Notes: generated by a model from the sequence alone, not told the origin. 64,000 nucleotides of DNA from an uncultured archaeon (GCA_963845175.1 CAWJRI010000001.1:6874-70873), one strand, 5' to 3'; numbered from the stretch's first letter, positions 12,541-51,731 are shown. Numbers and translations are program-made.

Positions 12541-12655
12541 TATTATAACTCAATAGTGGTATATAATACTTTCGTTTTTTGCCAGCCTCTGCCAATTATA
12601 ATTAAAAACATATATAAATATGTTAATTTTTTAAAATTAAAAAGAGGCTGTTTCT

Positions 12656-24084: not shown

Positions 24085-25032
24085 ATGTATGACATAATAT
24101 CAGTTGGAAGCGCGACAAGGGACATATTTGTCTGGACAGATGCAAAACTAAAGAAGGGGATGTTCTGCTATCCTGTCGGCGCAAAGATTCTTGCCACCAA
24201 TATTGACTTTCACTCGGGCGGCGGCGGGACAAATACAGCTGTCTCGTTCGCAAGAAAAGGGCTGAAGGCAGCCTATCTCGGCATGCTCGGCAGGGACAGC
24301 AATGGCATCTACATCAGGACTCTGCTTGACGCCTCCGGCGTTGATTTCATAGGCAACATCGGCAAAGAGATGACAGGCGTCTCAGTAATCCTTGACAGCA
24401 GGACAAAGCATGACAGGACAATTCTCGCCTACAAGGGTGTGAACAACCAGCTTAAATTTTCGCAGATAAAGCTTTCAAAGCTGAAGACAAAATGGTTCTA
24501 TTTCTGCGCAATGGAGGGCGAGTCATTCAAAACACTGGAGAAGCTTGCGGACTATGCAAAAAGAAAAAAGATCAAGGTCATGTTCAATCCAAGCTCATAC
24601 CTTGCAAAGGAGGGCATGAATCACCTGAAAAGAATAATCTCTGCAACAGACATCCTTGTGCTGAACAAGGAGGAGGCGGAATTATTGGCTGGCAGGGGCA
24701 GCATGAACGAGCTTCTGAAAAGGCTCCAGAAGCATGTCAAAATCGTGATTATCACAGACGGAAGCAACGGAGCTTGCGCCTACAACGGAATACAAAAATA
24801 CTTTGTGAAAAGGAATGTGAAGGTTGTGGAGGCGACAGGCGCAGGCGACGCATTCGGCTCCGGATTTCTCACTGGGATTATCCTGAAGAAGGATTTGGAG
24901 TTTGCGATGAAGCTTGCGCAGGCAAATGCCGAATCTGTTTTGAAATATGTCGGGGCAAAGGACAATCTTCTGTATGCAAACGAGATAAAAGGGGCGATTA
25001 GGGGACTTAAAGTCAGGATTGAAAAAATATGA
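24085..25032 (+). CDS. PfkB-family sugar/nucleoside kinase
   Basis: GGGGTNTAV and the C-terminal TGAGDAFGSGF signature. Confidence 0.8.
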   Translation: MYDIISVGSATRDIFVWTDAKLKKGMFCYPVGAKILATNIDFHSGGGGTNTAVSFARKGLKAAYLGMLGRDSNGIYIRTLLDASGVDFIGNIGKEMTGVSVILDSRTKHDRTILAYKGVNNQLKFSQIKLSKLKTKWFYFCAMEGESFKTLEKLADYAKRKKIKVMFNPSSYLAKEGMNHLKRIISATDILVLNKEEAELLAGRGSMNELLKRLQKHVKIVIITDGSNGACAYNGIQKYFVKRNVKVVEATGAGDAFGSGFLTGIILKKDLEFAMKLAQANAESVLKYVGAKDNLLYANEIKGAIRGLKVRIEKI

Positions 25033-25559
25033 ACTATAATCTGAACACAGACATTCTTCTGTCAGTTGAATACTTGAAATTCCTGCTTAAGTCAGGCTAC
25101 TCAGTTAAAGATGCTGTGAAAATAATTTCAAACAGGAAGCTCGGCGCAGTATCCGACCTTTTTGACAGCTCTCTGAAAAAGATGGAGTCCGGGAAGACGC
25201 TTAACGAAGCGCTCGCTGAGCAGGCCTCCGCACTCTCCGGAAACCTGAAAGAGCTTTTTCTTTCGCTGTCGAGCACCATGCCTGTCGAGAGCCTCGATTC
25301 GCTTGAAAAGAAGGCAATGGACACAAGAACCAATACAATTGAAAATTTGTCGAAAAAAGCAGGAAATCAGATTGGGAAGATAGCGCTTGTGCTCCTGATA
25401 CCCATGTTTTACTATTTTTTTGTTGCACTGAAAACTATTTTTGAGTCGATCGGCTGGAATGTGGCGGTTCCCCCGAATGCCGAGCTGGTTGTGCTCGGAG
25501 CAGTTGTCGCCCTGCTGGTTGTAATAATTTATCTGATGAGGTACAAAGAAAATGGATAA
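25029..25559 (+). CDS. membrane protein, possibly a T2SS-F/TadB-like pilus assembly domain
   Basis: SGYSVKDAVKII...GKTLNEALAEQA pattern followed by TM helices. Confidence 0.35.
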   Translation: MNYNLNTDILLSVEYLKFLLKSGYSVKDAVKIISNRKLGAVSDLFDSSLKKMESGKTLNEALAEQASALSGNLKELFLSLSSTMPVESLDSLEKKAMDTRTNTIENLSKKAGNQIGKIALVLLIPMFYYFFVALKTIFESIGWNVAVPPNAELVVLGAVVALLVVIIYLMRYKENG

Positions 25560-36796: not shown

Positions 36797-37210
36797 ATGG
36801 CAAACAAACAGGAGCATTATCTTTCTTTATTCAATACAGCCAAGACAAAGGAGGAGATAAAGAGAAAACTTGTCAGCCTCGATACATACTTGTCAGATCT
36901 CATAAGAAGGAACGATCCCAATTTCAATGAAAAGATTGTAAGTATGCTGATTAAGGTTACGACGCAGGCATATAAAGAGATAATCTATTCTAACGGCGAA
37001 ATCTCAGACATACTTGCCATAAACAGCATATCTCTCTACAAGACATTAGGAACAATACTCAGCAACTACAACCTTTATATCGCGAGCGAGCCTCAAAACG
37101 CCAATGTTCTTATGCCTTTGTTTGATAACTACAGCAAGTGCTATGTTTCATTGGGAGAAGCCATTGAAAATAAGACAAAAGTGCATCCTGACAAGATAAA
37201 GCTAGATTAA
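36797..37210 (+). CDS. hypothetical protein
   Basis: 137-aa ORF, convergent with the giant gene. Confidence 0.4.
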   Translation: MANKQEHYLSLFNTAKTKEEIKRKLVSLDTYLSDLIRRNDPNFNEKIVSMLIKVTTQAYKEIIYSNGEISDILAINSISLYKTLGTILSNYNLYIASEPQNANVLMPLFDNYSKCYVSLGEAIENKTKVHPDKIKLD

Positions 37211-40200
37211 ACTTTCTTCTCCTCAAACAGATTCACAAACTTGATTTTCTTGAACTCTCTGCTGTAAAGCTCTGGCACCTGCTCCATTGTGAATATCTTT
37301 TTATTCCTCATTCTGTGTGCGTAGTGCGTCAGTGCGAATGTGATGTCCCTGCACAGCTCCATAGGCAGCTTGTATGTGTTGTGTATCAAATCAACTTTCC
37401 ATTCATACTTTTTCTCAAGCTCGAACGCAACAAGATTTTTCAGTTCACTGTGTTTTTCGCAGTTCTCCTTTAATGTGTAAATCTTTCTGTATTTCTTTAT
37501 CTTATTCTCACTTATTAATTTTTCAATTGTCCCGCTGTCAGCTATCAGTGTTCCTTTTGGCCAGAGCAGAAGCAATAAAATAATAGCTGAGGCTATTACT
37601 GCCCCGACTATCCACCACAGCAGCCCGCTTCTGCCAGAATTTGTATTCGGTGTTGGCTTTTCCTCCTTAGGCTTCTCTTCAACATTTTTCTCAGGTGCTT
37701 TTTCCTCTGTTTTTGCTTTCTCAGCAGGCGTTGTCTCCCCTTTTGCAGGCGTCCTCAACGCAGGCGTCTCATTTGATTTTGGAGGTCCTATATAAGGCGC
37801 GATGCCTCCGCTGTTCTTTCCTGTTTTATTGCTTCCCGGAGGCGTCACTACTCCGCCAAATACATTAATTGTAAGTTTAAAAATTCCAGATTTGCCTGTG
37901 TTTCCTGCAGCGTCTGTGCAGTTGACGCTCCAGTTGTATTTTCCGTTTGCTAATGTCCTTGCGAAGCTCTGCGTTATCCCTTTTGTTATGGTCAAGTTAT
38001 TTGCAACTTTTACTTTATTCAAAATCAGCGAGCAGTTCGAAATGCTGTTAGCGTCGCTCACATTGTAATTGATTGTTGTTGAATTATCTGTCCTTAATGT
38101 GTTATTGGCAGGCGACTGGAGCTTTACAACCGGCGCATTTGTGTCCCTTGTTGTTATGTTTATTACTGTTGAGAGCCTGCTGTTCAGCGTGTCATTGACA
38201 GAAATGTTCAGCCATCTCGTTCCTATCGGCACTGACGTGCTTTCTTCTATCACACCTGTTGTTTTGTTTATCTTGAAGTAACCCGTGTCATTAATCCAGT
38301 ATTGGCTTATTCCGTCTGGGTCAGTTGCATTTACATCATAGTAAAACGAGTCTCCAAACTCAAGTGTCTTGTTCTGCGGCGTCTCCACCCAGGTCGGCGG
38401 TGTGTTTGTAACGCCCAAAACAGTAAGGTTGTTGCTCTTCTTTGCCAGACCATCAACATAGCCGTTATTCGGCGTGATTTCCGCCTGCCATGTCTCTCCA
38501 ACTTTTATTTCCTGCTTTACAATCCTGTCTGTCCTATTGTTGTACAGCGCTTTTATCTGTTCAGCTGACAGGCTTCTGTTGTAGATTCTTACTGAATTAA
38601 TTGTGCCGTTGAATGGGATGCTTCCAGTATCTGTTGTTCCTATGAATGTGCTTGCTGAAACTTCATTCAATGATGGAGGCGTGCATGATGGTGAGCATAC
38701 TATTTGTGGCAGGCTGCCGTCTACATATATCGAAACATCTGTCGTGTTCCATATGCCCACCAGATGATGCCATTTTCCATCCAGAATGCTTATGTTGGCA
38801 ATCGCATTGTACCATGATGCACCATCTGAAACAGCGAAATACGGATATGCGCCAGGAGCAATCGCAAGCCCCCATTGTGATGATGACGCACCAATTGATG
38901 ATGATACTTTTCCAATGATTGCTGCATACCAACCTACGTTGTCTGTCTTTACCCATACCTCTACTGAGAATGCCTCTGATGTGTTAAAAGTAAGCGAAGC
39001 TGAATCATTTATTTCTATGTAATCATCAACTCCATTGAATTTGTAGGCGCCTTTCCCATCAAATCCTCCATTTGAAACCCAAGTTGCTCCATTTACAGTT
39101 CCATTATTCCCATAATGTGAGTAGTCCTTTGTCTTTCCAGCGCCTGCAGAATTATCAGATTCAAACGGCATGTTCAATGCTATAATCGAAGCACCATTCC
39201 TGTACCAGTTGATTATGTTTGTTACATTAAGCCCGTTTGGATCAAATGTTGATTGGTTGTAAACAGTCAGATTTTCATTCGAAGTATTTGTTCCGTATGT
39301 TGAGTTCAGAATCGGCGTCCCCTGCGTCGGCGGCATTGTGTGAACAGTGAAGAACACCTGCGTTGAATTAATGTGATTGACTGTATCATTTACATAAACT
39401 GTAATATTGTTCAGCCCTTCTTGCCCGAAGAAAGTTACATTTATGCATCCAGGCAGCTTCAATTCGCCGCCTGTCACATTAACATACCAGCATTCTGAGA
39501 TATTTATGTTGTCACTTGCAGAATAATTCAGTGTCAATGTTTTTGTGTTATGAAGCGAGTTATTCCGCGGCAGATAGACAACAAGCGCCGGCGGGGTTGA
39601 ATCATTGATTGCACTAACTGCAATATCAACAGTCAGGTTGTACTTTACTGAAGCGCCTGTGTTTCCTGCAGCGTCTGTGCAGTTGACGCTCCAGTTGTAT
39701 TGTCCGTTTGCCAATATCCTTGCGAAGCTCTGCGTTATGCCCTCTGTTATTGTTGTATTAGTTTCATTATTCTTGTTATTTAATATTAATGAGCAATTCG
39801 AGATACTGTTTGCGTCGCTGACATTGTAATTGAATGTTGTTGAATTGACTGTCCTTAGCGTGTTGTTGGCAGGTAACTCAAGCCCTACAACTGGCGCATT
39901 TGTGTCCCTTGTTGTTACATTTATTATTGTTGAGCGCCTATTATTCAGTGTATCATTGACAGAGATGTTTAACCATCTTGTTCCAATAGGCAAGCCAGTA
40001 TTGTTTTGTATTATTCCTATATTTTTGTTAATCTTGAAATAAGTTGTGTCATTAATCCAGTATTGGCTTATTCCGCTCGGGTCTGTTGCGTTGACATCAT
40101 AGTAAAATGGATGTGTAAATTCAACAGTTCTATTTGTCGGCGTTTCGTTCCATGTCGGTGGAGTTGTATCAACAATGAAGAATACCTGCTTTGAAGCGGT

Positions 40201-43200
40201 TTGGTTTGAACTGTCGTTTGCATAGACAGTTATGTTGTTCCGCCCCTCTTTTCCGGAGAATGTAACATTTTTGCACCCAGGCAAATTAATCCTATTCCCA
40301 GTCACATTCGCGTACCAGCACTGCGATATTGCTGTATCATCATGAGCAGTGTAATTGAGCGTGATTGTTTTTGAATTATGAAGCGAGTTGTTTCGTGGCA
40401 GAGAAATATTTAGAATCGGTGCAGTTGCATCGAGCGTGAAGACGATTGGGGTGTCTGTGAGCAGCGCTATATTTTGCTTTGAGTTGACTGAAATGTTAAA
40501 TATTTTTGCATAAGTTGTTGAAACAAACGTTAAGTTAGGGTAGGCAATCCCCTGCGAATTTGTGTATCCCTGCCACAAAATATTTGTTCCATTTGTGACA
40601 TTGACATATCTATTCACTGCCATTGAGCCGTTTGTGTAGTTTATGACAACAGGATAGAACCTGTGTATAATTGAGCCAGATACGAATCCACCTACTAGAG
40701 AAGAAGTAAAGTCAACATACCCTTTGATTGTTGTACTATGTCTTCTTACGCTATTTACTTCTTTAACAATTGATTTTGGTTCTAGGAAATCTACAGTTGG
40801 ATTCCCGCTTAGCCAACCAAATTGGGTGCTATTTAGGTTAGAATTTTTTACATATGTAACAGAATTATTATAGAAATAAATTTTGTATTTCATATTTGCA
40901 TTTTCAATTGTATTATTTGAATTGTCATGAAAATGAACTTCATTGAAGAATAAGCTGTTATTAACAGTATTTACAGAGTCTCCTGAAAAATAACTTACTC
41001 CGCTGAAATTGCACTTATCAATCTTGTTGATCGAATTACCTCTAAAATCAATATTAGAAAGGAATACGCTATTCTTGATATTGTTTATCCCATTCGCTTC
41101 TGCATAAGGTCTTGAGAGATTAAAAGTCACTCCGCTCAAATTCGCCGAACCATAGATATAAATATCAAAATATTTTCCAGCAACCCCACTCCTTATGATT
41201 GATTTTTTTAATATTAAATTTGAAGTTTGATTAATGATAATCCTTCTATCAATATTTGATTGGTCAAGAACAAATGTTGTATTTTCCAAAACTAATGTCG
41301 TGTTTCTTTTTACAAACAGCGTCTGGTTCTTGAAGTACAAAAATGTATTGTTGCAAACAATACCTGCATTCTCTATTGTCCAATTAACATTCGGAGGAGG
41401 CAGCCCGCATCCCGGAAGCACTGAAATGTCATCGGATGTTTTCAGGTATTCATAATTTGTCTGGCTGCAGCTAACATTGTAATAATAAGGACCTGCGGTT
41501 GTGAAATTCCTGCTGAATTCGAACAATTTAGTTGATGAAGTATAGTTCATTGAGCCACTTAAGTCAGAGAAGCTTATGTTGCATGAAGCAGCTGTTATTG
41601 GCGCTCCTGAAGTTCTGTTTGAGTAATTTGCATAGAATATTATTTTTTCATATGTTGTCCTGTTCATCCAGCCGCCTTCTGGATCGTTCTCGTCAAAAAT
41701 TTTTAATTCTGAATTAGCTCCTGCGCTGTAATTTGAGAAGCCGGCAACTTCAAAAGTGAAATTCTTTCCATCATACCCTCTGCTTTTGCAGTTATGACAG
41801 ACAGCCCCATTTTTTAAAACAATTGGTGTTTTCTTAAAATTCAGGCTGTAAATTGTCAAATTTGCAGACTTGTTAAATTGAGAGTATTTGCTTGCGTTCA
41901 TGAAAATCGAATTATTGCCTATTACAAATGCTTCTGAAACCTTTGTCAAATCAATCGATTTTCCGAACTTTACCTTTCCATATCCATCTTTTTTCAATGA
42001 ATTCTCTGTTCCATTTACTTGTAAAATGGCATTTACTGCTTGAAGAACATCGATTCTTGGGAATGATAATCCAGTACGGCTATCGTTTATGAACTTATTT
42101 GTCCTTGTTTTTAACAGTTCCTTGACAACGCTTGGAGTTGCGTTTCTCTTATTTAGGAGCTTTTCTTTTTGATAGATTAGTGCTGCAGCGCCTGCAACAT
42201 GAGGCGCTGCCATAGATGTTCCAGATAAGGTGCGGTAGCCGGTGGCGCTGCAATTGCTGCAGCTGCCCTTGGGCACAGTTGAATTTATAGAGTACCCTGG
42301 AGCCAGCAGGTCAAGTATTCTATCAGTATTTGAAAATAGAGATAACGTATCTATTGCCATGCCTCCTGAACCATCATTAGAAGAGCCGACAGATGTGGCA
42401 TTTGGAGCGCAGGCAGGATAATTAATGCCATCACTTGCTCCATCATTTCCAGAAGCGGCAACCACAAAAATATTTTTTGCAACAGCAGTATCAATTGCAT
42501 TTGCAACCAGCCCGCCATCACTATTGTTTAGATCAATACTCCCTAACTGACATTGAGTATAACGGTTGTTGTGATGCTCGCCATCTCCTAAGCTTAGAGA
42601 TATCACAGAAATATTATACTTGCTTTGATTATTAATACACCAATCAATGGCATCGACAACATCTGGCCAGTGAAACTTTCCACTGGAGTTTGCCACTTTC
42701 ATCGCAACAAGCGTTGCTTCAGGCGCAACCCCCCTCAATTTTCCGTTTGCAGCAATAATTCCTGCAACGTGTGTTCCGTGGCCGTTGTCATCGTAAGGAT
42801 TATTGTTTTCAGAACTGCAATTTTCGTCAGCACAATAGTTATGCCCACCAATAACTTTTGCATTAGGGAAGCTGTTAAAACCTCCAAAATCTGAATGGTT
42901 ATAAGCAATTCCTGTATCAATAATACAGACGCTAACCCCTTTTCCCGTCAAATTTATCCCGTTTATTTTTATACCCTGGACAACATCTGCTTTAATCAGA
43001 GGAACACTTTTGCTTAAGCTAATACTGCCCACATTATCCTTAATTATACTTTTAATATTTTTATTTTTCTCAATCTTTTCAAGTTCTTTTTCTGTGACCT
43101 TTAATTCAAGTGCATTAATATTTGAATATTCATGCTCTATTTTTGTCTCATTCTTGTCAAGTATTTTTTTGACTTCTTCCTGTGCAATTTTTATTCTCTC

Positions 43201-43764
43201 CTTCCTTTGCTCTTCCTCATTATTTGCAACAGAAAACTTCTTTCCTTTTGGGTCTTCAAGAATTACAATGATATCATAGCTTTTTTCTTTTACTCCAGAT
43301 ACAAGACTTTTGTCAATCACAGGATTTTTTTCTTCTTCAACCCAAGTCAAATTTTGCACAACATAGTTTGCCTTTTTCAGCTCCAGGGTCCCGTTTAATT
43401 TAACAATCAGTTCAAAGCTTGTCTGGTTGAATTCGTCAATTGAGCAGGTTTCTTCGCATTTGTCTTCAAAATTTTCTGTGCCGTTGACTATTAAATATGT
43501 TTTATTCGTTGCTTTTAGATAAATTTCAGCGCTTCCATTAACATTTCCAGTCAGCTTGAAGCTTGTCAATCTTGGGATTCTTGGGGATTCAAGGTCGACT
43601 GTCAAATTAGTTGATGAGTTTAATGTCATGTTAATATCTTTTTCATAGCTCAGGTCATTGACATTTTGCCAGAATAAGCCAGTTATATTCGGATTTGAAA
43701 ATGCAAAGACTAGCGCAACTATCAAGACAATTCCTATAATTGCTTCTTTTAGCCTCATTCTCAT
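37207..43764 (-). CDS. Giant (2185 aa) surface protein: signal anchor, subtilisin (S8) protease, beta-helix-like region, repeated Ig-like modules, LamG lectin-like domain, TM helix and a 117-aa cytoplasmic tail
   Basis: S8 triad motifs VCIIDTG (Asp codon at 42918-42916), HGTHVAG and SGTSMAAPHVAG (Ser codon at 42216-42214). LamG-like segment at about 38518-39132 (FSVEVWVKTD...WHHLVGIW...VRIYNRSLS). TM LLWWIVGAVIASAIILLLLLW at 37561-37623. N-x-S/T sequons are very dense. Confidence 0.85.
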   Translation of the reverse strand: MRMRLKEAIIGIVLIVALVFAFSNPNITGLFWQNVNDLSYEKDINMTLNSSTNLTVDLESPRIPRLTSFKLTGNVNGSAEIYLKATNKTYLIVNGTENFEDKCEETCSIDEFNQTSFELIVKLNGTLELKKANYVVQNLTWVEEEKNPVIDKSLVSGVKEKSYDIIVILEDPKGKKFSVANNEEEQRKERIKIAQEEVKKILDKNETKIEHEYSNINALELKVTEKELEKIEKNKNIKSIIKDNVGSISLSKSVPLIKADVVQGIKINGINLTGKGVSVCIIDTGIAYNHSDFGGFNSFPNAKVIGGHNYCADENCSSENNNPYDDNGHGTHVAGIIAANGKLRGVAPEATLVAMKVANSSGKFHWPDVVDAIDWCINNQSKYNISVISLSLGDGEHHNNRYTQCQLGSIDLNNSDGGLVANAIDTAVAKNIFVVAASGNDGASDGINYPACAPNATSVGSSNDGSGGMAIDTLSLFSNTDRILDLLAPGYSINSTVPKGSCSNCSATGYRTLSGTSMAAPHVAGAAALIYQKEKLLNKRNATPSVVKELLKTRTNKFINDSRTGLSFPRIDVLQAVNAILQVNGTENSLKKDGYGKVKFGKSIDLTKVSEAFVIGNNSIFMNASKYSQFNKSANLTIYSLNFKKTPIVLKNGAVCHNCKSRGYDGKNFTFEVAGFSNYSAGANSELKIFDENDPEGGWMNRTTYEKIIFYANYSNRTSGAPITAASCNISFSDLSGSMNYTSSTKLFEFSRNFTTAGPYYYNVSCSQTNYEYLKTSDDISVLPGCGLPPPNVNWTIENAGIVCNNTFLYFKNQTLFVKRNTTLVLENTTFVLDQSNIDRRIIINQTSNLILKKSIIRSGVAGKYFDIYIYGSANLSGVTFNLSRPYAEANGINNIKNSVFLSNIDFRGNSINKIDKCNFSGVSYFSGDSVNTVNNSLFFNEVHFHDNSNNTIENANMKYKIYFYNNSVTYVKNSNLNSTQFGWLSGNPTVDFLEPKSIVKEVNSVRRHSTTIKGYVDFTSSLVGGFVSGSIIHRFYPVVINYTNGSMAVNRYVNVTNGTNILWQGYTNSQGIAYPNLTFVSTTYAKIFNISVNSKQNIALLTDTPIVFTLDATAPILNISLPRNNSLHNSKTITLNYTAHDDTAISQCWYANVTGNRINLPGCKNVTFSGKEGRNNITVYANDSSNQTASKQVFFIVDTTPPTWNETPTNRTVEFTHPFYYDVNATDPSGISQYWINDTTYFKINKNIGIIQNNTGLPIGTRWLNISVNDTLNNRRSTIINVTTRDTNAPVVGLELPANNTLRTVNSTTFNYNVSDANSISNCSLILNNKNNETNTTITEGITQSFARILANGQYNWSVNCTDAAGNTGASVKYNLTVDIAVSAINDSTPPALVVYLPRNNSLHNTKTLTLNYSASDNINISECWYVNVTGGELKLPGCINVTFFGQEGLNNITVYVNDTVNHINSTQVFFTVHTMPPTQGTPILNSTYGTNTSNENLTVYNQSTFDPNGLNVTNIINWYRNGASIIALNMPFESDNSAGAGKTKDYSHYGNNGTVNGATWVSNGGFDGKGAYKFNGVDDYIEINDSASLTFNTSEAFSVEVWVKTDNVGWYAAIIGKVSSSIGASSSQWGLAIAPGAYPYFAVSDGASWYNAIANISILDGKWHHLVGIWNTTDVSIYVDGSLPQIVCSPSCTPPSLNEVSASTFIGTTDTGSIPFNGTINSVRIYNRSLSAEQIKALYNNRTDRIVKQEIKVGETWQAEITPNNGYVDGLAKKSNNLTVLGVTNTPPTWVETPQNKTLEFGDSFYYDVNATDPDGISQYWINDTGYFKINKTTGVIEESTSVPIGTRWLNISVNDTLNSRLSTVINITTRDTNAPVVKLQSPANNTLRTDNSTTINYNVSDANSISNCSLILNKVKVANNLTITKGITQSFARTLANGKYNWSVNCTDAAGNTGKSGIFKLTINVFGGVVTPPGSNKTGKNSGGIAPYIGPPKSNETPALRTPAKGETTPAEKAKTEEKAPEKNVEEKPKEEKPTPNTNSGRSGLLWWIVGAVIASAIILLLLLWPKGTLIADSGTIEKLISENKIKKYRKIYTLKENCEKHSELKNLVAFELEKKYEWKVDLIHNTYKLPMELCRDITFALTHYAHRMRNKKIFTMEQVPELYSREFKKIKFVNLFEEKKV
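37864..38394 (-). repeat. intragenic 531-bp module, copy 2 (B2C2)
   Basis: Colinear with 39625-40155 at a constant 1761-nt offset. There is a 47-nt identical run (37894-37940 = 39655-39701). My hand alignment gives about 76% amino-acid identity (134 of 177). Confidence 0.9.
39328..39603 (-). repeat. intragenic 276-bp module, copy 2 (A2)
   Basis: DSTPPALVVYLPRNNSLHNTKTLTLNYSASD... is paralogous to DATAPILNISLPRNNSLHNSKTITLNYTAHD... at 40156-40431. Confidence 0.85.
39625..40155 (-). repeat. intragenic 531-bp module, copy 1 (B1C1)
   Basis: See the 37864-38394 entry. Confidence 0.9.
40156..40431 (-). repeat. intragenic 276-bp module, copy 1 (A1)
   Basis: See the 39328-39603 entry. Confidence 0.85.
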
Positions 43765-43765
43765 T

Positions 43766-44035
43766 TTATCCTACATAATCTATTTTGTGCGTTTCTCCTA
43801 TGAGCTCCACAGAATATTTGTCAAACTTTACATTCCAAATATTGAAGACATGCTCTATTTCCCTGGATTTGTCAAACGGGATTATGAAGCAGCCTGGGAC
43901 AAGAAATTTTCCACCAGAATCTTCTACAATTCCCTTACGCTTATTCCTTCCTTTCAGAACCTGGACAAATTTGACCTTTGTAAGACTATTTAACTCAGAA
44001 AGATTGTAAACATATATTACCTCTTTTTTGTGCAT
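43766..44035 (-). CDS. Small (89 aa) hypothetical protein translationally coupled to the giant gene
   Basis: Its stop (43768-43766) lies 1 nt before the giant gene ATG (43764). TATA box and palindromic sites lie upstream. Confidence 0.55.
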   Translation of the reverse strand: MHKKEVIYVYNLSELNSLTKVKFVQVLKGRNKRKGIVEDSGGKFLVPGCFIIPFDKSREIEHVFNIWNVKFDKYSVELIGETHKIDYVG

Positions 44036-44063
44036 TTATGTTAATAGGTTAACATATAACTAG

Positions 44064-44071
44064 TATTTAAA
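44064..44071 (-). promoter_or_regulatory. TATA box (TTTAAATA)
   Basis: 28 nt upstream of the ATG at 44035. Confidence 0.4.
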
Positions 44072-44078
44072 TTTTTTG

Positions 44079-44145
44079 GTTAACGAATTAACAAAGTGGT
44101 ATTTGTTGGTTAATGTATTAACAGAATTTAAGTTAATGAATTAAC
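44079..44145. promoter_or_regulatory. Three copies of the palindrome GTTAAY-GN-ATTAAC (candidate operator array)
   Basis: GTTAACGAATTAAC at 44079-44092, GTTAATGTATTAAC at 44109-44122 and GTTAATGAATTAAC at 44132-44145. An additional GTTAAC lies at 44048-44053. Confidence 0.55.
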
Positions 44146-44148
44146 AAA

Positions 44149-47100
44149 TCAAGGATATCCGCAAGTATTTATCGCCCAATTCAGGAATTGTGTTATTGTT
44201 TGGTTATACTCTTTTGCTGTGGATAGATTAATGGGTTTTATAAGCTCGTTATAACCCATTTTGCAGTTGTTTATTTCATTGTTAAGTTGCGTTATCCAGT
44301 TTGCAGGTAACCCCGCTCTTTCACTAGTGCCAGGATTATTTGGGGTTACGTATTCATCACCTATTGTGTGCTGCGACCCAGTTTCCATCCTGTCAACATT
44401 TAATGTAAATCCGTCTATTGTTCCCAATGTTGTATGATTCAAATTATGGCCAAGCAAAATCCCTAAATTTTCGTAAAGCGGAGTAGAAATCGCATTTGCT
44501 TCATTTTCTGTTATATAAACAGTTATGTTTACATATTTAACTGCCTTATTCCCTGCTTTATCTGTTGCAGTTATTTTCATTACATAATGCCCGCTTTTGT
44601 TATAAACTATTTTTGTTGCATCAGCTATATTATCTGATACACCTGGGAAATATACTGCTGTCCCTCCAACACCTGAATAATCAACTGTCTTATTGTCTGT
44701 TATGTCCTTGTCAATTGTTATGTTTACACTATTATCAGCCCTTCCTCCAATTTCTATCGAAGCAATTGACGCCAATGTCCCTGACTGAGCAGGATCTCTT
44801 GCACTATATTCAAGGTAAAATGTATCATTTGTGAATCCCTTCGCAATAGTCTTGATTACATTGCTTCCGTTATCAAGGTAACCAAGATCCAATGTGCCCT
44901 CTAATCCTCCATTTATGAAAGGAGGCGTCGTGTCCTTCACAACAAAGAAATCCCCAATCTTGTGCATCTTCCCCCACTTCAGATTATCATAGGCGTGAAT
45001 CTCATATCTTCCAGGTCCCCAGTTGCAGGGTATGTAAACCTTGTAGTTCTTGTTGTGCTGTTTATTGTCGTTTGGCAGGAATAGGTTCTCAGAAGATTTG
45101 CTCTGGTTTCCGCAGTAGACTGTCTTGCCGTCAACATGGCAAGGGATATTAGATGGGAAAGAACTGCTGTCTGCTGTGTGATTCTCAACAATAAACGTTA
45201 CAGTTGTGTCATTGTAGCCGTTGTTTACGCCGAACATGTTGAAATTAACATATTCGTTGCAAGTATAGTTGTTGTTTCCTTCGAATCTTCCTGAATAAAT
45301 TATATATCCGTCGAAATTCAGACTCTTGTAATATGTGGAGTTCTCAGCAACCTCTGAAATATGCATGCCATTGTCACATGAGCTATCATTCCAATCCTGC
45401 CAGTTCTTCACTCCATTATGATTGCAGTCATCTGTGTAAATAGTAGTGTTCTGCGTAGGCTTGCTGTAATTGTACAAATCAACAAGTATGACAGCATCGT
45501 TGTAGTCAAAGTCTGGCATGATGCTCTTCTTAACGTCAAGGTCTTCAAAATAAATCCTCCAGGTGTCATAGTCAAGCCTGTCGACTATTGCGTAGCTTGA
45601 GTTTGAATAGTGATCATAATCTATTTTCTTTGTGCAGTATCCTGGTACGCAGTGCACTCTGATGTAGAACAAGAGATTTGTCAATGCAGGTATTTTCTGC
45701 CCGTTGTTGATGATTACTGATTCTCCTGTCGAACTGTTCGCGACAAGCAATTTGTCATAAGGCTGTGCAATGCGAAGATCAGATTTTAGGGCAGCATCCT
45801 CCTTTTCAAAAAGGACCTTCACATTGCCTGTTTCAGGCAGTACTATCTGCTTGTCCTCTGTTGGCTGCGTGCTCATCTTATGGTCAAAATCCTTTTCACT
45901 ACAGCCCTGAATGACAATGTTTGTATAACCTGTGCTTGATGTTGTGAATCCGTAATAAGAGCCGTTTGCATCTGTCACAGCGTCGGGAACAGGCTTTGGC
46001 TGCAACGCAGAGTAATTGCCTGTCATATTCTCAGCATCCCAGACGCTAGTGTCATAAAATGATATATTTGCTCCTGCAACCGGCAGGCCAGTGTTTGTGT
46101 CGACCACTCTTCCATAAACATTTGGAATAAAGTTTGAGCAGCTTGGGTAAGTCCCATTCCAGTCAAGGCTGTGAAAGTTGCACACATCTACTGTGTCATT
46201 GCTTCCATCATTGCATTCGGAATTTACATGGCATGACTGGTGGGCGTGAAGTATTATCGATTTTGAGACATTGTCTATGCCGTCAGTCGCCTTCAATGTG
46301 ATGTTGTAATCTCCGTACTGCGTTGAATTGGGTGTCCAGGAAATCACATTGTTTTTGAACGTCGCTCCTGGAGGAAGATTCTGTGCCGAAATGCTGACTG
46401 TGCCGTTGTCAGGATCATTCATATTAATAGAAATATTATTATTGTATGTGCTCCAGGCTTCGCTGTCGCCGGTAATTATTTGGGGAGGAGCATTAAGGTA
46501 TGTGTTGTTCGCAAAAACATTGTTTGAGCTGTTTGCCCTGTACCCGCCGAAATTGAGCAGATTTTTGGTTATCGAATTTCCCATTGAATTGTAGCCAATT
46601 AAAATTGCTGTTGCGCTGTTGCGCGTTACATTGTTTTTGCTGATTATGTTATTGTTATCCCGAAGCCCTCTTGAGGGAACAATGTCACTCATCAGCAGAA
46701 TTCCTTCAAATGCATTGTTCTTTACATTGTTATTCCTTATCTCGTTATTGCTTGAGTTGAAAAGCGCGATTCCAGGACCAAGGTTGTTCAGCACATTGTT
46801 GTTTAATATGTAATCAGGTCCTGCATTTCCGACGTAAATGCCAGAATAAAATCCTCTTTTGCTTTCGCTTGTGTCGTATCCGCCGTTTCCAGTCAGATTG
46901 TTGCCAGCAACATAGTTGTAAACTGCATTGTTATTATTGTTGCCGGTAATCTGGATTCCTGAGTTTGAATTGTAATTTACATTGTTGTTTGTGACATTGT
47001 TGTAGTCATCACCGTTCTGGAGCGTGATTCCGTATTCCTGATTTTCAACAACATTATTTTTTATGATATTGTATTTGCAGCTTGTTGCATCATTCAATAT

Positions 47101-48234
47101 GTCTGACGGAACAAGATTTATGCCTCTTTTGTTGTTGAATCTTAATGTATTTCCTGAGATTGTGTTGTGGGAAGCGTCAACAAGCTCAATTCCAGCAACT
47201 GTGCTGTTTGTTACAATGTTGTTTGTTATGATGTTGCTGTTGGAATTTTCAAGATAAATCCCTTTGTTATATTTCTTTATGTTGCAGTTCTTTATTGTGT
47301 TGCCGCTGTGGGTGCTGCTGTAAATTCCGTAGCCGTTTCCATTACCGACAATGACTGAGTTGTTGCAGTTCAGCACAACATTATTTGCGCCCATCTTCAG
47401 GATTCCATCGTTGTTCGCGTCATTTATGTTGTATGTTTTTGCGCAGAGCGTTGCGTTTGAGTTCACAACCAAGTCATCTGTCAGGTTGATGCAGTGCCCT
47501 GACTCGCCTGCGGTGTAGTTCGTGAAATGCTGGACAGTGAATGTCAAATCCCCGTTTGAATAGCTTATTACATTGCAGTCACTGCATTCGCTACCATCCT
47601 TTAAAACGACAGGATTGCCGAAAGACAAGCCATAGAGTGTCAAGGTTGCCGGCTTGTTCAGCTCAGGCAGGTTGCTTGAATCAACTGAAATGAGATTATA
47701 TGATATCTGGACATAGGCGTCAAGGTTTGCATTTGAAACATCAACAGACTGTCCGCTGAAATCGATTTTTCCATTTGTTGGGATATCCAGCACCAAATCG
47801 TCGACAGCTTTCAAATTGCTTTCTTTTGAAAAGTCAGTTGTATCGCCTGAGAACTTTGTTGCATCAGGAAGGTTTGAGTTTGAACCGCTTCCACTGCTTG
47901 AGCTGCCTCCTGAAGAGGTTGATATGGTTTTCTTGCTTGTGCTTGAGCCTGCGAGGATATTATAACTTGGCTTTGTCTGGTTTTGGGTCTGGTTCTGGGC
48001 AGCAGTTACCTGAGTTTTAGTTGTCTGGTTTTTTATTGTTTCCTGAACTTTGTTCTGCGAACTTTCATTTGCAACTACAGGAGTTTCATTTGCCTCTGCT
48101 GCCTTCAACTCCGAGGAAGCTGTTCTGTCATAGACAACGTGACCTGTAATAACACCATTGCTGCAGCCGTAGAGAAACATAGTCAAGAATGCCAGAATTA
48201 ATACAATGCCCCTCTTTTTATTTTTCAGCTTCAT
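44149..48234 (-). CDS. Large (1361 aa) secreted lipobox protein with parallel beta-helix (PbH1/NosD-like) repeats and a DUF4114-like segment
   Basis: LAFLTMFLYGCSNG, a Ser/Thr/Gln linker, and many N-rich beta-helix repeats (NNIVTNSTVAGIELVDASHNTISGNTL...) at about 46430-47520. FDYNDAVILVDLY lies near 45480-45520. Confidence 0.8.
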   Translation of the reverse strand: MKLKNKKRGIVLILAFLTMFLYGCSNGVITGHVVYDRTASSELKAAEANETPVVANESSQNKVQETIKNQTTKTQVTAAQNQTQNQTKPSYNILAGSSTSKKTISTSSGGSSSSGSGSNSNLPDATKFSGDTTDFSKESNLKAVDDLVLDIPTNGKIDFSGQSVDVSNANLDAYVQISYNLISVDSSNLPELNKPATLTLYGLSFGNPVVLKDGSECSDCNVISYSNGDLTFTVQHFTNYTAGESGHCINLTDDLVVNSNATLCAKTYNINDANNDGILKMGANNVVLNCNNSVIVGNGNGYGIYSSTHSGNTIKNCNIKKYNKGIYLENSNSNIITNNIVTNSTVAGIELVDASHNTISGNTLRFNNKRGINLVPSDILNDATSCKYNIIKNNVVENQEYGITLQNGDDYNNVTNNNVNYNSNSGIQITGNNNNNAVYNYVAGNNLTGNGGYDTSESKRGFYSGIYVGNAGPDYILNNNVLNNLGPGIALFNSSNNEIRNNNVKNNAFEGILLMSDIVPSRGLRDNNNIISKNNVTRNSATAILIGYNSMGNSITKNLLNFGGYRANSSNNVFANNTYLNAPPQIITGDSEAWSTYNNNISINMNDPDNGTVSISAQNLPPGATFKNNVISWTPNSTQYGDYNITLKATDGIDNVSKSIILHAHQSCHVNSECNDGSNDTVDVCNFHSLDWNGTYPSCSNFIPNVYGRVVDTNTGLPVAGANISFYDTSVWDAENMTGNYSALQPKPVPDAVTDANGSYYGFTTSSTGYTNIVIQGCSEKDFDHKMSTQPTEDKQIVLPETGNVKVLFEKEDAALKSDLRIAQPYDKLLVANSSTGESVIINNGQKIPALTNLLFYIRVHCVPGYCTKKIDYDHYSNSSYAIVDRLDYDTWRIYFEDLDVKKSIMPDFDYNDAVILVDLYNYSKPTQNTTIYTDDCNHNGVKNWQDWNDSSCDNGMHISEVAENSTYYKSLNFDGYIIYSGRFEGNNNYTCNEYVNFNMFGVNNGYNDTTVTFIVENHTADSSSFPSNIPCHVDGKTVYCGNQSKSSENLFLPNDNKQHNKNYKVYIPCNWGPGRYEIHAYDNLKWGKMHKIGDFFVVKDTTPPFINGGLEGTLDLGYLDNGSNVIKTIAKGFTNDTFYLEYSARDPAQSGTLASIASIEIGGRADNSVNITIDKDITDNKTVDYSGVGGTAVYFPGVSDNIADATKIVYNKSGHYVMKITATDKAGNKAVKYVNITVYITENEANAISTPLYENLGILLGHNLNHTTLGTIDGFTLNVDRMETGSQHTIGDEYVTPNNPGTSERAGLPANWITQLNNEINNCKMGYNELIKPINLSTAKEYNQTITQFLNWAINTCGYP

Positions 48235-48905
48235 TTTTTATTGTACCAGTCAATCTGCGCCCTGAAAATATCACCTGTTGGATTATTAAACTCAACTGTT
48301 TTTGTAACAGGATTCTTGTATGTAATGTCGCCTGAAACAAAATAAGGGCATCCAGCTGGATTGTCACAGCCAGTGGATGTCACAGCCAGTGGATAATTAG
48401 TGGATGTCGCAGCTGTTGGATAATTCGCAGTTACCGAAGGATCAGATATTTTACTAATCACACCAATAACATCATTGAGCACAACGCCGTCTGTCAGGTT
48501 TTTGATTCCGAAGTTCACCTGCACATTTCCCCCTAAAGATGAGACGCAGTTTGCATCAGCACTTATGCTGTAATCAGCGCTTACTGTGCGGTCAACCTGC
48601 GAAACACTGCATTCGTCACTGTCAATGTCCCAATGCCAGGTTTCAAGAAGATAATGCTGCGGTGCAGGAGGCTGCTGCTGGGCAGGCGGAGAGCCACCAC
48701 CACTTCCTTGACAGGAGGAGAACATTGGAAATGATTGAGTTTTTAGCGCTTGATAATCCTTAACATTAGTTCCATATGTTTCTGACACACATCTTTCCAA
48801 TGCGCTGCCCTGCTGACCTTCGCACACATCCTTGAAATTAGAACTCATGCTGCATCCTAGACTAATTATTGTTGCGGCAATACCAATAGGTTTCCATATT
48901 CGCAT
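48231..48905 (-). CDS. secreted lipobox protein
   Basis: MRIWKPIGIAATIISLGCS. ATG at 48905 follows GGGGG. Its stop overlaps the ATG of the 1361-aa gene by 4 nt. Confidence 0.55.
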   Translation of the reverse strand: MRIWKPIGIAATIISLGCSMSSNFKDVCEGQQGSALERCVSETYGTNVKDYQALKTQSFPMFSSCQGSGGGSPPAQQQPPAPQHYLLETWHWDIDSDECSVSQVDRTVSADYSISADANCVSSLGGNVQVNFGIKNLTDGVVLNDVIGVISKISDPSVTANYPTAATSTNYPLAVTSTGCDNPAGCPYFVSGDITYKNPVTKTVEFNNPTGDIFRAQIDWYNKK

Positions 48906-49010
48906 CTTGTCCCCCACACCTCTATTTAGTATCCAAACCCCCTATTTGTACTACTTATCAATTACAAGTATTTAAACCTTTCTGAAAGTCATATATTTCA
49001 AGAAATTTTA

Positions 49011-50525
49011 TTATGAAGCAGGCAAATAAATATTAAAAATTGTGCCTTTTCCCGGCTCTGACTCTACATCAATCTGTCCGTTATGCCTCTTAATTATGGA
49101 ATATGCAGTTGAAAGCCCAATTCCTGTTCTTCCTTCTTTGGTTGAGAAAAAAGGGTCAAATATCTTAGATAATTTATCTTTGGGAATACCAACTCCCTGG
49201 TCTTTAACAGCGATTTTTATGTATCTTCCTTCTTGTAAATCTGAATATTCTCTGTTTTTAAATAAAATGTTTTCAGCCTGAATATTAATCAATCCTCCGT
49301 CTGGCATTGCCTGGTCCGCATTCATAACAATATTGGCAATAACCTGGCTTATCTGCCCTTCATCCATGTTAACCAGGCCAAGATTATCCGCAATATTAAA
49401 CTCATACTTGACATTAGATCTGCTCAGTGCAAAATTGGCAGAGTCTTTAATTATCTTTTCAATAGACGTCATATTTTTGACTGGCCCTCCTCCGCCTGCA
49501 AATGTGACTAATTGGCTGGCCAGATTTTTTCCCCGCAGGGATGCTTTTTCCACATCCTCTATTATTTCATATAATTCCTTATCATCACTGTATTGCTCTT
49601 TAATGCAGGAAATATTGCCTAAGATACCTGCCAATACATTGTTGAAATTATGGGCGATGCCTGCCGCAAGATTGCCAATGGCTTCAAGTTTTTGCATTTT
49701 AAGCTTCTGCTCTTCAGCTTTCCTATGCTCTGTGATATCCCTAAAGAGACCTAGGAGATATGTTTTTCCAGCCAGCGTTATCGGAGTCGAGTTTATGTCT
49801 GCATAAAAAACACTGCCGTCTTTTCTTTTTACCGGAATATCTTTAGCCACTGCAATCTCTCTTCTTGCCTGTTTCTCAAACTGCTCTATAACATAAGGTA
49901 AATCTTTCTCGGGATGAATATCAGTGACTCCCAAATTTTTAATTTCTTCAAGTCTGTAACCTAGCATTTGACAGATTGCATTATTGGAGCTATCAAATTT
50001 TTTGGTCTCATTATCTACCAGGATTATTCCGTCGTTTGCACTGTCAAAAATAGCTTTAAATCTTTCCTCGGAATCCCGCAGCGCCTCCTCCGCCTGCCTG
50101 CGCTCGGTGATGTCACGGCACAGCGTAAGAATCTTTGTTACTTCGTCCACTTTCACGACAGTCGCATTAATTTCAATCGGGGTAATCTTGCCTTGAGCAT
50201 TTATGTAGTCAATATTTAAATTTCTGATTTGGCCCTCTCTGAAACAATTACCGACAGCCTCGGCATTCTTTTCTTTTTCGTAATCAGCTGTCCATTCAAC
50301 TATACTTCTACCGCATATCTGGCTGAGATCCTTATGCCCAGAAAGACGGACATACTCCTGATTTGCATCAAGGACCTTGCCTTCCTGGTCAAGAATTACA
50401 AAACCTGTATTAGTTGTTTCAATAAGCCCCTTATATAATCTTAGGCTTTTCTGCAATGCCTCTTCAGCTTTCTCCAGCTCCCGAACCCTTTTTTCCAGCT
50501 CCGAATAAGTTGGTTTTTTATCCAT
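49011..50525 (-). CDS. cytoplasmic PAS-PAS sensor histidine kinase
   Basis: Two PAS-like segments, H-box AAGIAHNFNNVL, and ATPase N/G boxes (NADQAM, DQGVGI, GTGIGLS). No TM helix. Confidence 0.85.
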   Translation of the reverse strand: MDKKPTYSELEKRVRELEKAEEALQKSLRLYKGLIETTNTGFVILDQEGKVLDANQEYVRLSGHKDLSQICGRSIVEWTADYEKEKNAEAVGNCFREGQIRNLNIDYINAQGKITPIEINATVVKVDEVTKILTLCRDITERRQAEEALRDSEERFKAIFDSANDGIILVDNETKKFDSSNNAICQMLGYRLEEIKNLGVTDIHPEKDLPYVIEQFEKQARREIAVAKDIPVKRKDGSVFYADINSTPITLAGKTYLLGLFRDITEHRKAEEQKLKMQKLEAIGNLAAGIAHNFNNVLAGILGNISCIKEQYSDDKELYEIIEDVEKASLRGKNLASQLVTFAGGGGPVKNMTSIEKIIKDSANFALSRSNVKYEFNIADNLGLVNMDEGQISQVIANIVMNADQAMPDGGLINIQAENILFKNREYSDLQEGRYIKIAVKDQGVGIPKDKLSKIFDPFFSTKEGRTGIGLSTAYSIIKRHNGQIDVESEPGKGTIFNIYLPAS

Positions 50526-50925
50526 TTTTTCCTTCCAATATCAGGGCGATTGCCTTCTTCATCTCGTCTAATGTATATGGTTTGGCAAGAGCGCCTTTAA
50601 AATGATATTTTTCAAAATCAGACATTATAGGACTGTTAGAATAACCGCTTGAAGCCAACACTTTGACATTGGGGTCTATTTCAATCAGTTCATCTAATGT
50701 TTTCTCACCCCCCATGCCACCTGGTATAGTTAAATCAAGTATGACAATGTCAAATGACTTGTTTGATTTCCTGGCTTCTTTATACAATTTTACAGCTTCA
50801 GCGCTGTTTGAGGCAAACTCTCCAATATATCCCAAATTTTTAAGTATTCTGCCAGCAACCTTTATTATTATTTCTTCATCGTCCATTACAAGTATCTTTG
50901 CTTTATAATCTGTTTTTTTATTCAT
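50518..50925 (-). CDS. stand-alone receiver-domain response regulator (CheY-like)
   Basis: ILVMDDEE, IVILDLTIPGGMGG, LASSGY and AKPY. No output domain. It overlaps the kinase start by 8 nt. ATG at 50925. Confidence 0.8.
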   Translation of the reverse strand: MNKKTDYKAKILVMDDEEIIIKVAGRILKNLGYIGEFASNSAEAVKLYKEARKSNKSFDIVILDLTIPGGMGGEKTLDELIEIDPNVKVLASSGYSNSPIMSDFEKYHFKGALAKPYTLDEMKKAIALILEGKNG

Positions 50926-50960
50926 TTTAATTAAAAAACATTCTTTACTTAAAATAGCTT

Positions 50961-51731
50961 CTAAAAAGCCCACTCATCGCCATTCCTCAAATACTTTTTC
51001 CACCTACTACTCTCACCATTTAATACGCTGGCAACAGCGTCTGCGATTGTAGTGTCAACATACTCTTTCTTGACCCTTTCAAGATGGCTTTCATAAAAAT
51101 CACTTACTATCTTTCTTGCATTCTCCCTTTTTTCAGGAATGTATGGATCATCTGCCTTAATTCTGCCCCAATTATCTGTGATTGACTTCTGATGTATGTT
51201 TTCAACCTCGAAACTAACTATTGTCTGTCTGATTTCGCCCTGCATTTTTTTAAAATCATTAAACTTTGGATAATCCTTTGCGTATTCCTCAAACCACTTG
51301 CACAGAATATTTGCCTCTGCAAAAGGCCATCTGTCCCAGCTGACTGTCCTTTCTCCTTTTTGAATGCTTTTCATGCCTTCATCTTTAAGCGCAGCAATCC
51401 TGTTGTACATCTGCCTCTGGATTTTCGTACACCTTTTTCTGACATTTTTCATGTCTTCCTTCATCTCAGGAAATTTCTTAGGATTTACATTTTTTCTCAT
51501 CCAATAGCAATAATTACCTGCAAGCTGAAGCTCCTCATCTGGGCTTTTTTGATATTCAAAACTGAAGACTTTTTCATAGCCTTTTTTGTATTCTGCAACC
51601 TGAGCTTTATGCTGTGCTACTCTTGCTTCCAAGGCTATCCTCTCTGGAGGCAGTCTTGGGCTGCTGCAGCCATAAAGCGCATCTGCTGCAAGAAACAGAA
51701 GTCCAGCGCCAAAAGCGAGTTTTTTATTCAT
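50961..51731 (-). CDS. secreted lipobox protein
   Basis: MNKKLAFGAGLLFLAADALYGCSSP. It is the first gene of the co-directional cluster. Confidence 0.55.
   Translation of the reverse strand: MNKKLAFGAGLLFLAADALYGCSSPRLPPERIALEARVAQHKAQVAEYKKGYEKVFSFEYQKSPDEELQLAGNYCYWMRKNVNPKKFPEMKEDMKNVRKRCTKIQRQMYNRIAALKDEGMKSIQKGERTVSWDRWPFAEANILCKWFEEYAKDYPKFNDFKKMQGEIRQTIVSFEVENIHQKSITDNWGRIKADDPYIPEKRENARKIVSDFYESHLERVKKEYVDTTIADAVASVLNGESSRWKKYLRNGDEWAF

Follow-up and report, generated by a model that had tools for sequence, protein, structure and literature searches.

This analysis concerns a 64,000-nt stretch of DNA from an uncultured archaeon (GCA_963845175.1, CAWJRI010000001.1:6874-70873; hereafter the window) and, within it, an array of seven minus-strand genes that ends in the gene of a giant subtilase adhesin of 2185 aa. 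An earlier inspection by a model that was given the DNA alone (the sequence-only reading) had described the seven genes as one module joining a two-component sensor to two giant surface proteins. Checks of the open reading frames (ORFs) and Pfam searches confirmed the coordinates, lengths, overlaps, gaps and domain calls reported there for all seven (Table 1). The genes of the response regulator (RR) and histidine kinase (HK) overlap by 8 nt (50518-50525), those of the 228-aa and 1361-aa proteins by 4 nt (48231-48234), and a single nucleotide separates the 89-aa gene from the subtilase gene; the larger gaps of 35, 93 and 113 nt were also found as described. One connection was not made there, namely that between the palindromes of the 113-nt gap and the 89-aa protein, and it is the strongest signal in the locus.

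Table 1. Positions of the array genes, their regulatory elements and protein segments, and of other features discussed in the text.
Feature	Position	Strand	Sequence	Basis or content
256-aa protein gene	50961-51731	-	window	ORF, lipobox-like N-terminus
RR gene	50518-50973 (151 aa from GTG); 50518-50925 (135 aa from ATG at 50925, the start used in the sequence-only reading)	-	window	ORF, Pfam
HK gene	49011-50525	-	window	504 aa, Pfam PAS-PAS-HisKA-HATPase
Conserved promoter TTTCAGAAAGG-TTTAAATA of the 228/1361 pair	48969-48987	-	window	comparison with L004 and L002
228-aa Cys-rich lipobox-like protein gene	48231-48917	-	window	ORF
1361-aa lipobox-like surface protein gene	44149-48234	-	window	ORF, Pfam
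Conserved C-terminal module of the 1361-aa protein	44152-46512		window	~790 aa
Shared ~90-aa domain, 1361-aa protein	47512-47826		window	residues 137-241
Regulatory region	44036-44148	-	window	four palindromes and TATA box, motif scan
Palindromes	44132-44145, 44109-44122, 44079-44092, 44040-44053		window	GTTAAY-NN-RTTAAC
TATA box TTTAAATA	44064-44071		window	
89-aa protein gene	43766-44035	-	window	ORF, AlphaFold2 model
2185-aa subtilase adhesin gene	37207-43764	-	window	ORF, Pfam
Inhibitor_I9 propeptide	43033-43209		window	Pfam
Peptidase_S8	42100-42945		window	Pfam, E 1.1e-48, residues 274-555
Shared ~90-aa domain, 2185-aa protein	41719-41979		window	residues 596-682
Laminin_G_3 (LamG)	38551-39033		window	Pfam
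Direct repeat	37864-38163 and 39625-39924		window	300 nt, 80% identity
C-terminal transmembrane segment	37540-37632		window	residues 2045-2075, hydropathy
Cytoplasmic tail of the subtilase	37210-37539		window	~110 aa
137-aa ORF	36797-37210	+	window	
ORF runs (131-365 aa)	1004-5460 and 11241-13559		window	no Pfam match at E<=1e-4
FUR-family regulator and ZIP metal transporter	7387-8566		window	divergent
CARDB-domain protein and T2SSF-like fragment	22837-23670 and 25029-25559		window	near tRNA-Gln gene
Nucleotidyltransferase, 61-aa ORF and HEPN genes	176-1244		L003	
L018 giant-protein locus	1288-4560		GCA_003695435.1	remote 90-aa member and palindrome with three-nucleotide spacer

The TATA box and three palindromes claimed earlier for the 113-nt gap were recovered only in part. 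The TATA box and the palindromes are there, but the latter are four copies of a single 14-bp element, GTTAAY-NN-RTTAAC, and not three different ones. The gap holds, in order, GTTAATTCATTAAC, GTTAATACATTAAC, GTTAATTCGTTAAC, the TATA box TTTAAATA and GTTAACCTATTAAC, and the last palindrome ends 4 nt before the ATG of the 89-aa gene. With one mismatch allowed, GTTAATNNATTAAC has four matches in 64 kb, all of them in this gap, against an expectation of 0.24.

Close homologs of the 89-aa protein number only four in an index of 5.8 billion proteins. Twelve further non-identical loci were obtained from their contigs, from one genome match and from scanning metagenomes with the 89-aa alignment. The layout operator, TATA box, operator and ATG recurs upstream of the homolog in L002-L005, L007, L009, L010, L012 and L014, and a single operator abuts the ATG in L008 and L013. 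A second operator pair stands before the next gene in L003, L006, L009, L011 and L012, and L013 has a single second site. Across the window and the 12 related loci (185.5 kb) there are 36 strict sites with the two-nucleotide spacer, where a first-order Markov model predicts 0.21; none is more than 360 nt from the domain gene, and 31 are no farther than 100 nt away. Of the 26 intervals between one site and the next, 18 measure 39 or 40 nt, and the proximal site is 0-4 nt from the ATG in most loci. Five more sites of this kind come from L014 and L020, and L015, L018 and L019 carry a variant with a three-nucleotide spacer. In L015, whose member has the domain in tandem, this variant reads GTTAAC-TTA-GTTAAC upstream of the gene; in L018/L019 a TATA box is followed by GTTAAT-N3-ATTAAC, which lies 3 nt before the ATG of a remote 90-aa member that precedes a 2185-aa Disaggr_repeat/CBM96 protein. 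As far as sequence comparison can tell, this is the pattern of an autoregulated operator-regulator pair, with a dyad site at the candidate regulator's own promoter that is inherited with its gene.

Archaeal repressors such as the TrmB family, Phr, MDR1 and LrpA bind palindromes that flank or overlap the TATA box and the transcription start, and they do so with helix-turn-helix (HTH) or winged-helix domains. The dyad sites of the window resemble theirs in position, just upstream of the B recognition element (BRE) and TATA box and over the expected transcription start of the candidate regulator's operon. The difference lies in the protein, which is ferredoxin-like and matches no known DNA-binding family.

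The 89-aa protein is basic (pI 9.2) and cytoplasmic, with no signal peptide. AlphaFold2 (AF2), run on a five-sequence alignment, returned a ferredoxin-like beta-alpha-beta-beta-alpha-beta-beta model at a predicted local distance difference test (pLDDT) score of 88.5, with the invariant KVxFVxxLKGR of the family on helix 1. The protein has no Pfam match at E<=10, none in NCBIfam, PADLOC or PHROGs at E<=0.01, and no PDB sequence match at E<=10. The structure and family checks that had been proposed for the small products of the array thus gave a confident fold for this protein, but the library searches found no family for it or for the 228-aa and 256-aa proteins. Identities as Cas2, a prodomain or an E2-like protein were dropped because no Foldseek match reached E<=0.001. 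Cas2 carries a catalytic Asp at the end of strand 1; this strand ends in Asp in most family members and in Asn in the window protein, the Cas2 matches themselves had E ~0.1 and TM-scores of 0.35-0.48, and there are no cas genes or repeats nearby.

An HMMER scan of 1.84 billion representatives placed the family at no fewer than 273 clusters. Architectures were taken from 153 members (150 listed clusters and three close homologs): the domain stands alone in 69, forms a tandem pair in 20, follows an N-terminal extension of at least 90 aa in 47, and is arranged otherwise in 17. All five extended members that were scanned have a Pol-beta/NTP_transf_2 nucleotidyltransferase as the extension, one of them with NucS_C as well, and the fusion gives a weak NCBIfam match to MntA. 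The fusions of L012 and L014 are each the second gene of a two-gene operon with an identical operator layout; a HEPN identity for the 117-aa upstream partner in L012 was not confirmed, as it has no HEPN match. Directly upstream of the 91-aa homolog of L003 and its subtilase lie genes for a Pol-beta nucleotidyltransferase (195 aa), a 61-aa ORF and a HEPN protein (99 aa). These features recall the MNT-type nucleotidyltransferases of HEPN/MNT (type VII) toxin-antitoxin pairs, through the fusion of the domain to a nucleotidyltransferase and the gene neighborhood in L003; the 89-aa protein of the window differs in having neither a nucleotidyltransferase domain nor a HEPN partner. No extra copies of the domain were found in the window.

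Since the domain and the palindrome are all that these otherwise unrelated operons have in common, the most economical explanation would have the domain bind the palindrome, either as a dimer or, in the tandem forms, as a pseudo-dimer. The tandem copies in 20 of 153 members would fit a dimer on a dyad site, and the position of one site over the expected transcription start points to repression. We infer that the 89-aa protein most likely binds DNA as a dimer and in this way regulates its own gene and that of the giant subtilase adhesin. Alternatively, an unlinked factor might bind the palindromes while the 89-aa protein serves the subtilase as an adaptor or chaperone (on its tail or nascent chain), acts as a prodomain-like inhibitor, or is an RRM-like RNA-binding protein. 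Translational coupling across the 1-nt gap to the subtilase gene would suit such roles, as would a ferredoxin/RRM-like fold that weakly matches protease prodomains and Cas2 and lacks a classical DNA-binding motif. However, the operator follows the domain into subtilase-free contexts, namely the nucleotidyltransferase operons of L012 and L014, the neighborhood of a P-type ATPase gene in L010, and the Disaggr_repeat/CBM96 giant of L018. An extracellular role as a prodomain in trans is unlikely for a protein without a signal peptide, and the residue that ends strand 1, Asp in most members, is Asn here. We regard this alternative as rather unlikely.

A scan of the coding strand for TTTAWAWA gave eight matches in 14.9 kb, three of which lie in intergenic gaps behind purine-rich upstream sequence: 33 nt before the 256-aa start (TTTATAAA), 59 nt before the GTG of the 228-aa gene, and 36 nt before the 89-aa start. 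The second belongs to an element, TTTCAGAAAGR-TTTAWATA, that also precedes the 224-aa ortholog of the 228-aa gene in L004 and, in the sensor-less L002, stands directly before the gene of a 1057-aa lipoprotein. The RR of L004 has its own TTTATAAA. On these motifs, the array is likely composed of three units, 256-RR-HK, 228-1361 and 89-2185. The view of the seven genes as one module is difficult to maintain, as the 228/1361 and 89/2185 units each have a conserved TATA box and purine-rich upstream sequence of their own.

Comparison with related loci points in the same direction. The closest, L004, is from an uncultured archaeon whose Tyw1 is 94% identical; it carries a Metallophos gene, an unrelated 214-aa gene, the RR (78% identity), the HK (91%), the 224-aa gene (60%), a 1346-aa counterpart of the 1361-aa protein (72%), the 89-aa gene (73%), a 1566-aa subtilase (66%), and then VWA and MoxR. 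The conserved seven-gene order that the sequence-only reading envisaged therefore holds in part: RR-HK-228-1361-89-subtilase recurs in L004, but the 256-aa gene is missing there. L002 (Tyw1 82%) has Metallophos (73%), a 210-aa gene (by eye a homolog of the 214-aa gene of L004), a homolog of the 256-aa gene (41%), a 132-aa Cys-rich gene on the opposite strand, the 1057-aa lipoprotein, the 89-aa gene (69%) and a subtilase (57%), and lacks the RR, the HK and the 228-aa gene. In L008, L007 and L013 (Tyw1 59% in L008), Metallophos and an 85-aa gene are followed by a subtilase or LamG protein, with VWA and MoxR next in L013; tblastn found no HK or RR match at E<=1e-5 in these three. An RR homolog is absent from L002 and from L005-L013.

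All five of these loci hold the 89-aa-type gene and surface proteins at the same chromosomal position as the window. The sensor thus does not appear to be a conserved partner of the surface proteins, as it is absent in L002 and was not detected in L007, L008 and L013, all of which keep the 89-aa gene together with surface proteins. From this synteny pattern, the position of the island and the pairing of a small gene with a giant one appear to be old, while the sensor and the 228-aa gene appear confined to the branch of the window and L004. The small gene lies directly before a subtilase in L002-L005, L007 and L008 and before other large proteins (LamG-containing or unannotated) in L009, L013 and L018; a P-type ATPase gene neighbors the domain gene in L010.

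The 2185-aa protein combines the propeptide and peptidase domains with Big/Ig blocks, LamG and a Pro/Glu/Lys-rich stalk. Its catalytic motifs IIDTG, HGTHVAG and GTSMAAPHVAG (Asp/His/Ser), as seen in the translation, are intact, as expected of an S8 peptidase. Hydropathy shows an N-terminal hydrophobic segment (signal anchor) and a C-terminal transmembrane segment, behind which the cytoplasmic tail begins. The orthologs are much shorter and lack LamG, with 1566 aa in L004 and ~1290 aa in L002, but the tail is kept at 74% (L004) and 50% (L002) identity, better than much of the ectodomain. Two copies of a direct repeat show that an Ig block was duplicated on both sides of the LamG insert; this expansion is not in the L004 and L002 orthologs, and the duplication is recent. 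Segments similar to the LamG region (residues 1470-1787) occur in other proteins of L006 and L013. Because LamG segments recur elsewhere and the orthologs lose LamG but keep the tail, the ectodomains seem to change by the shuffling of modules, which is what exposed surface proteins would be expected to do.

The tail itself (searched as 37210-37575) has no meaningful match in Pfam, NCBIfam, PHROGs or PDB, nor in a large homolog search, and a single-sequence AF2 model of it (pLDDT 43.8) was discarded. More distant subtilases behind the small gene also have a transmembrane segment and a helical tail, which BLAST does not align to the window tail. Comparative support for a coupling of tail and 89-aa protein therefore ends with the close relatives. 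Convergent with the subtilase gene, whose stop it overlaps by 4 nt, is a 137-aa ORF. It matches no family, and tblastn found no counterpart in related loci (E<=1e-3 for L002-L004, E<=1e-5 for L005-L013). Its place is taken in L004 by a 312-aa ORF.

In layout, the 2185-aa protein resembles the SPEARE proteins of Nanohaloarchaeota (Hamm et al. 2019, PMC6642349), giant surface proteins with an N-terminal serine protease, LamG/adhesion domains and a variable ectodomain. In those, a transmembrane segment near the C-terminus leads into a comparatively conserved cytoplasmic portion with a type III restriction-enzyme domain, and most are 3315-8553 aa long (PMC6642349). Protease, LamG/adhesion ectodomain, C-terminal transmembrane segment and cytoplasmic end are common to both. 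The window protein differs in its size of 2185 aa and in its tail of ~110 aa, which has no detectable domain and is too short for a type III restriction-enzyme domain; no toxin-like domain was found in it. SPEARE genes have not been reported to have a small regulator or an operator. Judged by its domain content, the 2185-aa protein is SPEARE-like in layout but not a SPEARE member, as the defining cytoplasmic restriction-enzyme domain is missing.

The 1361-aa protein has a lipobox-like N-terminus of its own, FLYGC, read from the translation and missed earlier. A low-complexity linker is followed by a ~90-aa domain shared with the subtilase, a beta-helix (residues 269-559), He_PIG and the C-terminal module; the Pfam matches are Beta_helix, NosD and He_PIG. 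The L004 relative is similar overall, and the C-terminal module has counterparts in L002 (48% identity) and L008 (33%). In the 1057-aa counterpart of L002 the N-terminal part consists instead of He_PIG, Big_9 and cadherin repeats. A metagenome scan with the C-terminal module returned no match. N-X-S/T sequons number 120 in the 2185-aa protein (5.5 per 100 aa) and 46 in the 1361-aa protein (3.4 per 100 aa), compared with at most 1.1 per 100 aa in the cytoplasmic proteins, a density that fits glycosylated extracellular proteins. The surface location proposed for both giants is well supported: their N-termini (signal or lipobox-like), their Ig, LamG, beta-helix and PKD-type domains and their sequon density all make them very probably extracellular.

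The ~90-aa domain that the two giants share is 40% identical between them. In the 1361-aa protein it has a sub-threshold Pfam match to the Nup98 S59 autopeptidase and ends in HFTNY, and Nup98 cleaves itself between the Phe and the Ser of HFS. The shared domain may be an autoproteolytic shedding module; a PDB sequence search with the Nup98/S59-like part of the 1361-aa protein gave noise only.

The remaining two proteins bear lipobox-like N-termini in their translations, ALYGC in the 256-aa protein and SLGC in the Cys-rich 228-aa protein. A lipobox proper follows the pattern [LVI][ASTVI][GAS]C behind a hydrophobic signal segment. The 256-aa homolog of L002 has 267 aa and a transmembrane anchor in place of the Cys, and L004 has none. 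With a homolog in a locus without the sensor and none in a locus that has it, the 256-aa gene does not consistently accompany the sensor. No family exceeded threshold for this protein in Pfam, NCBIfam, PADLOC, PHROGs or PDB, and the sole sub-threshold Pfam match was to Syntaxin. The 228-aa protein probably starts at the ATG at 48905, behind a GAGGTG Shine-Dalgarno sequence; it has no homolog in L002 and no family match.

Turning to the sensor, the RR consists of a REC domain only (Pfam Response_reg, E 1.3e-16) in which the receiver residues D15/D16, D64, S92 and K115 are all present, and its best NCBIfam matches are the receiver ends of hybrid kinases (PRK13557, CckA). In the HK, HATPase_c scores above the Pfam cut-off (E 1.7e-23) and HisKA below it (E 6e-5; 23.4 bits, cut-off 26.9), and the H, N, G1 and F boxes of a kinase are there as AHNFNN (His292), NADQA, DQGVG and FDPFF. 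A hydropathy scan found no hydrophobic or membrane segments in either protein, so that the earlier description of a regulator without DNA-binding output and a kinase without a membrane sensor is upheld. As the pair carries all phosphotransfer motifs, it is probably functional as a cytoplasmic PAS phosphorelay of bacterial type. The HK has a single close ortholog (91% identity). No other match exceeds ~55% identity over most of the query; the majority are longer PAS or hybrid kinases, and those that come with an organism name belong to bacteria (Nitrospirae, Deltaproteobacteria, Desulfopila and others). In appearance the pair is a bacterial hybrid kinase (CckA/AtoS-like) that has been split, and a horizontal origin is suggested. 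Base composition is not distinctive, which argues for an old, lineage-specific acquisition rather than a recent one. No paralogous sensors were found elsewhere in the window.

The sequence-only reading knew of no described system with this wiring. In the census of archaeal two-component systems by Galperin et al. (2018, PMC5847659), stand-alone REC proteins account for about 40% of archaeal regulators, sensors are cytosolic far more often than in bacteria, and REC-only regulators lie mostly outside conserved neighborhoods. A REC-only RR with a cytosolic PAS kinase is accordingly a common archaeal configuration, and the features singled out as unusual are the archaeal default. Like the systems of the census (PMC5847659), the window pair sets a REC-only RR beside a soluble PAS-HisKA-HATPase kinase, with output presumed to occur through protein-protein contact; it shows no difference from them in kind.

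These observations bear on the proposal that the PAS kinase and RR control the production or activity of the giants by protein-protein contact, with phospho-RR meeting the 89-aa protein or the protease tail and all seven genes forming one module. The genes are co-directional and tightly packed, the order from RR to subtilase is kept in L004, an RR without an output domain must act through partners, and the subtilase keeps 50-74% identity in its tail against a variable ectodomain. Nonetheless, the sensor is absent or was not detected in four of the related loci, each of the two surface-protein units has its own conserved promoter, a REC-only RR with a cytosolic kinase is the archaeal norm and mostly sits outside conserved neighborhoods (PMC5847659), the nearest named relatives of the HK are bacterial, and more distant subtilases behind the small gene do not share the conserved tail. 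Taken together, this makes control of the giants by the sensor improbable.

The array is flanked by archaeal housekeeping genes (Tyw1, NrdD, ThyX, an XPD-like helicase, a DHH-CID nuclease, archaeal-type S15 and a MoxR-VWA pair), and part of the region is present as an identical copy in one Logan assembly. Genes are densely packed along the whole window and often follow one another in the same direction, as would suit a chance juxtaposition of genes in a compact genome, with no shared regulation even of the 89-aa and subtilase genes. Against such a coincidence stand the repeated placement of the 89-aa gene before subtilases and other large proteins, the conserved promoter layout and the operator statistics, and we give it next to no credence.

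Elsewhere in the window, a divergent FUR-family regulator and ZIP metal transporter look like a simple metal-homeostasis unit. Two runs of ORFs without a Pfam match are in keeping with an archaeal lineage that is poorly characterised. More cell-surface genes beyond the array lie near the tRNA-Gln gene and encode a CARDB-domain protein and a T2SSF-like (pilus or archaellum platform) fragment.

We consider it reasonably probable that several units, each with a promoter of its own, make up the array, which sits in a variable island of surface-protein genes, with the 89-aa protein as a likely DNA-binding switch and the RR-HK pair as a lineage-specific insert. The island would lie between housekeeping flanks, Tyw1 and Metallophos on one side and VWA and MoxR on the other, and its old core would comprise a large secreted or lipid-anchored protein, the small protein of 85-90 aa and a giant subtilase adhesin anchored in the membrane. 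Extracellular domains (beta-helix, PKD, He_PIG, LamG, Ig) would be swapped, duplicated or lost between relatives. A dimer of the 89-aa protein would bind the GTTAAY-NN-RTTAAC copy just upstream of the TATA box and the one between TATA box and ATG, over the expected transcription start, and would thereby repress or otherwise gate transcription of its own gene and of the translationally coupled subtilase gene. The RR-HK pair and the 228-aa gene would have entered the island in the common ancestor of the window organism and L004, and any link from the sensor to the surface proteins would be a recent addition.

Several points weigh against this composite reading. The 89-aa protein has no HTH, ribbon-helix-helix or other known DNA-binding motif, and Foldseek comparison of its model with PDB and viral structures gave weak ferredoxin-fold matches only (Cas2, procarboxypeptidase prodomains; best E 0.017, TM-score <=0.5), none at E<=0.001. 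DNA binding by this protein is something we infer from the company it keeps with the palindrome, which an unlinked transcription factor could bind, and the remote members of L016 and L017 have no operator nearby. The unit boundaries are predicted from promoter motifs, and the 35-nt gap before the window RR contains no strict TATA match. The sensor is adjacent and co-directional in both genomes that have it, and there may be a lineage-specific regulatory link.

Giant surface proteases and adhesins are believed to be the means of cell-cell contact in small, host-dependent archaea, a role put forward for SPEARE proteins. A wiring from sensor to surface apparatus is attractive in this setting but weakly founded, being suggested by adjacency alone. 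More tentatively than for the composite array itself, we suggest that the 89-aa protein could be the first recognised member of an undescribed family of ferredoxin-fold DNA-binding regulators (stand-alone, tandem and MNT-fused) that read GTTAAY-N2/3-RTTAAC around archaeal TATA boxes and, in this uncultured archaeal lineage, serve as dedicated on/off switches for fast-evolving giant surface proteases and adhesins. In the window, the switch might in addition be gated by the PAS kinase/REC pair or by the subtilase tail, with feedback across the membrane. The family would link surface-protein operons with nucleotidyltransferase and toxin-antitoxin-like operons. While the sensor is an ordinary archaeal-style pair and the operator layout is classic for archaeal repressors, the fold family of the candidate binder is unannotated.

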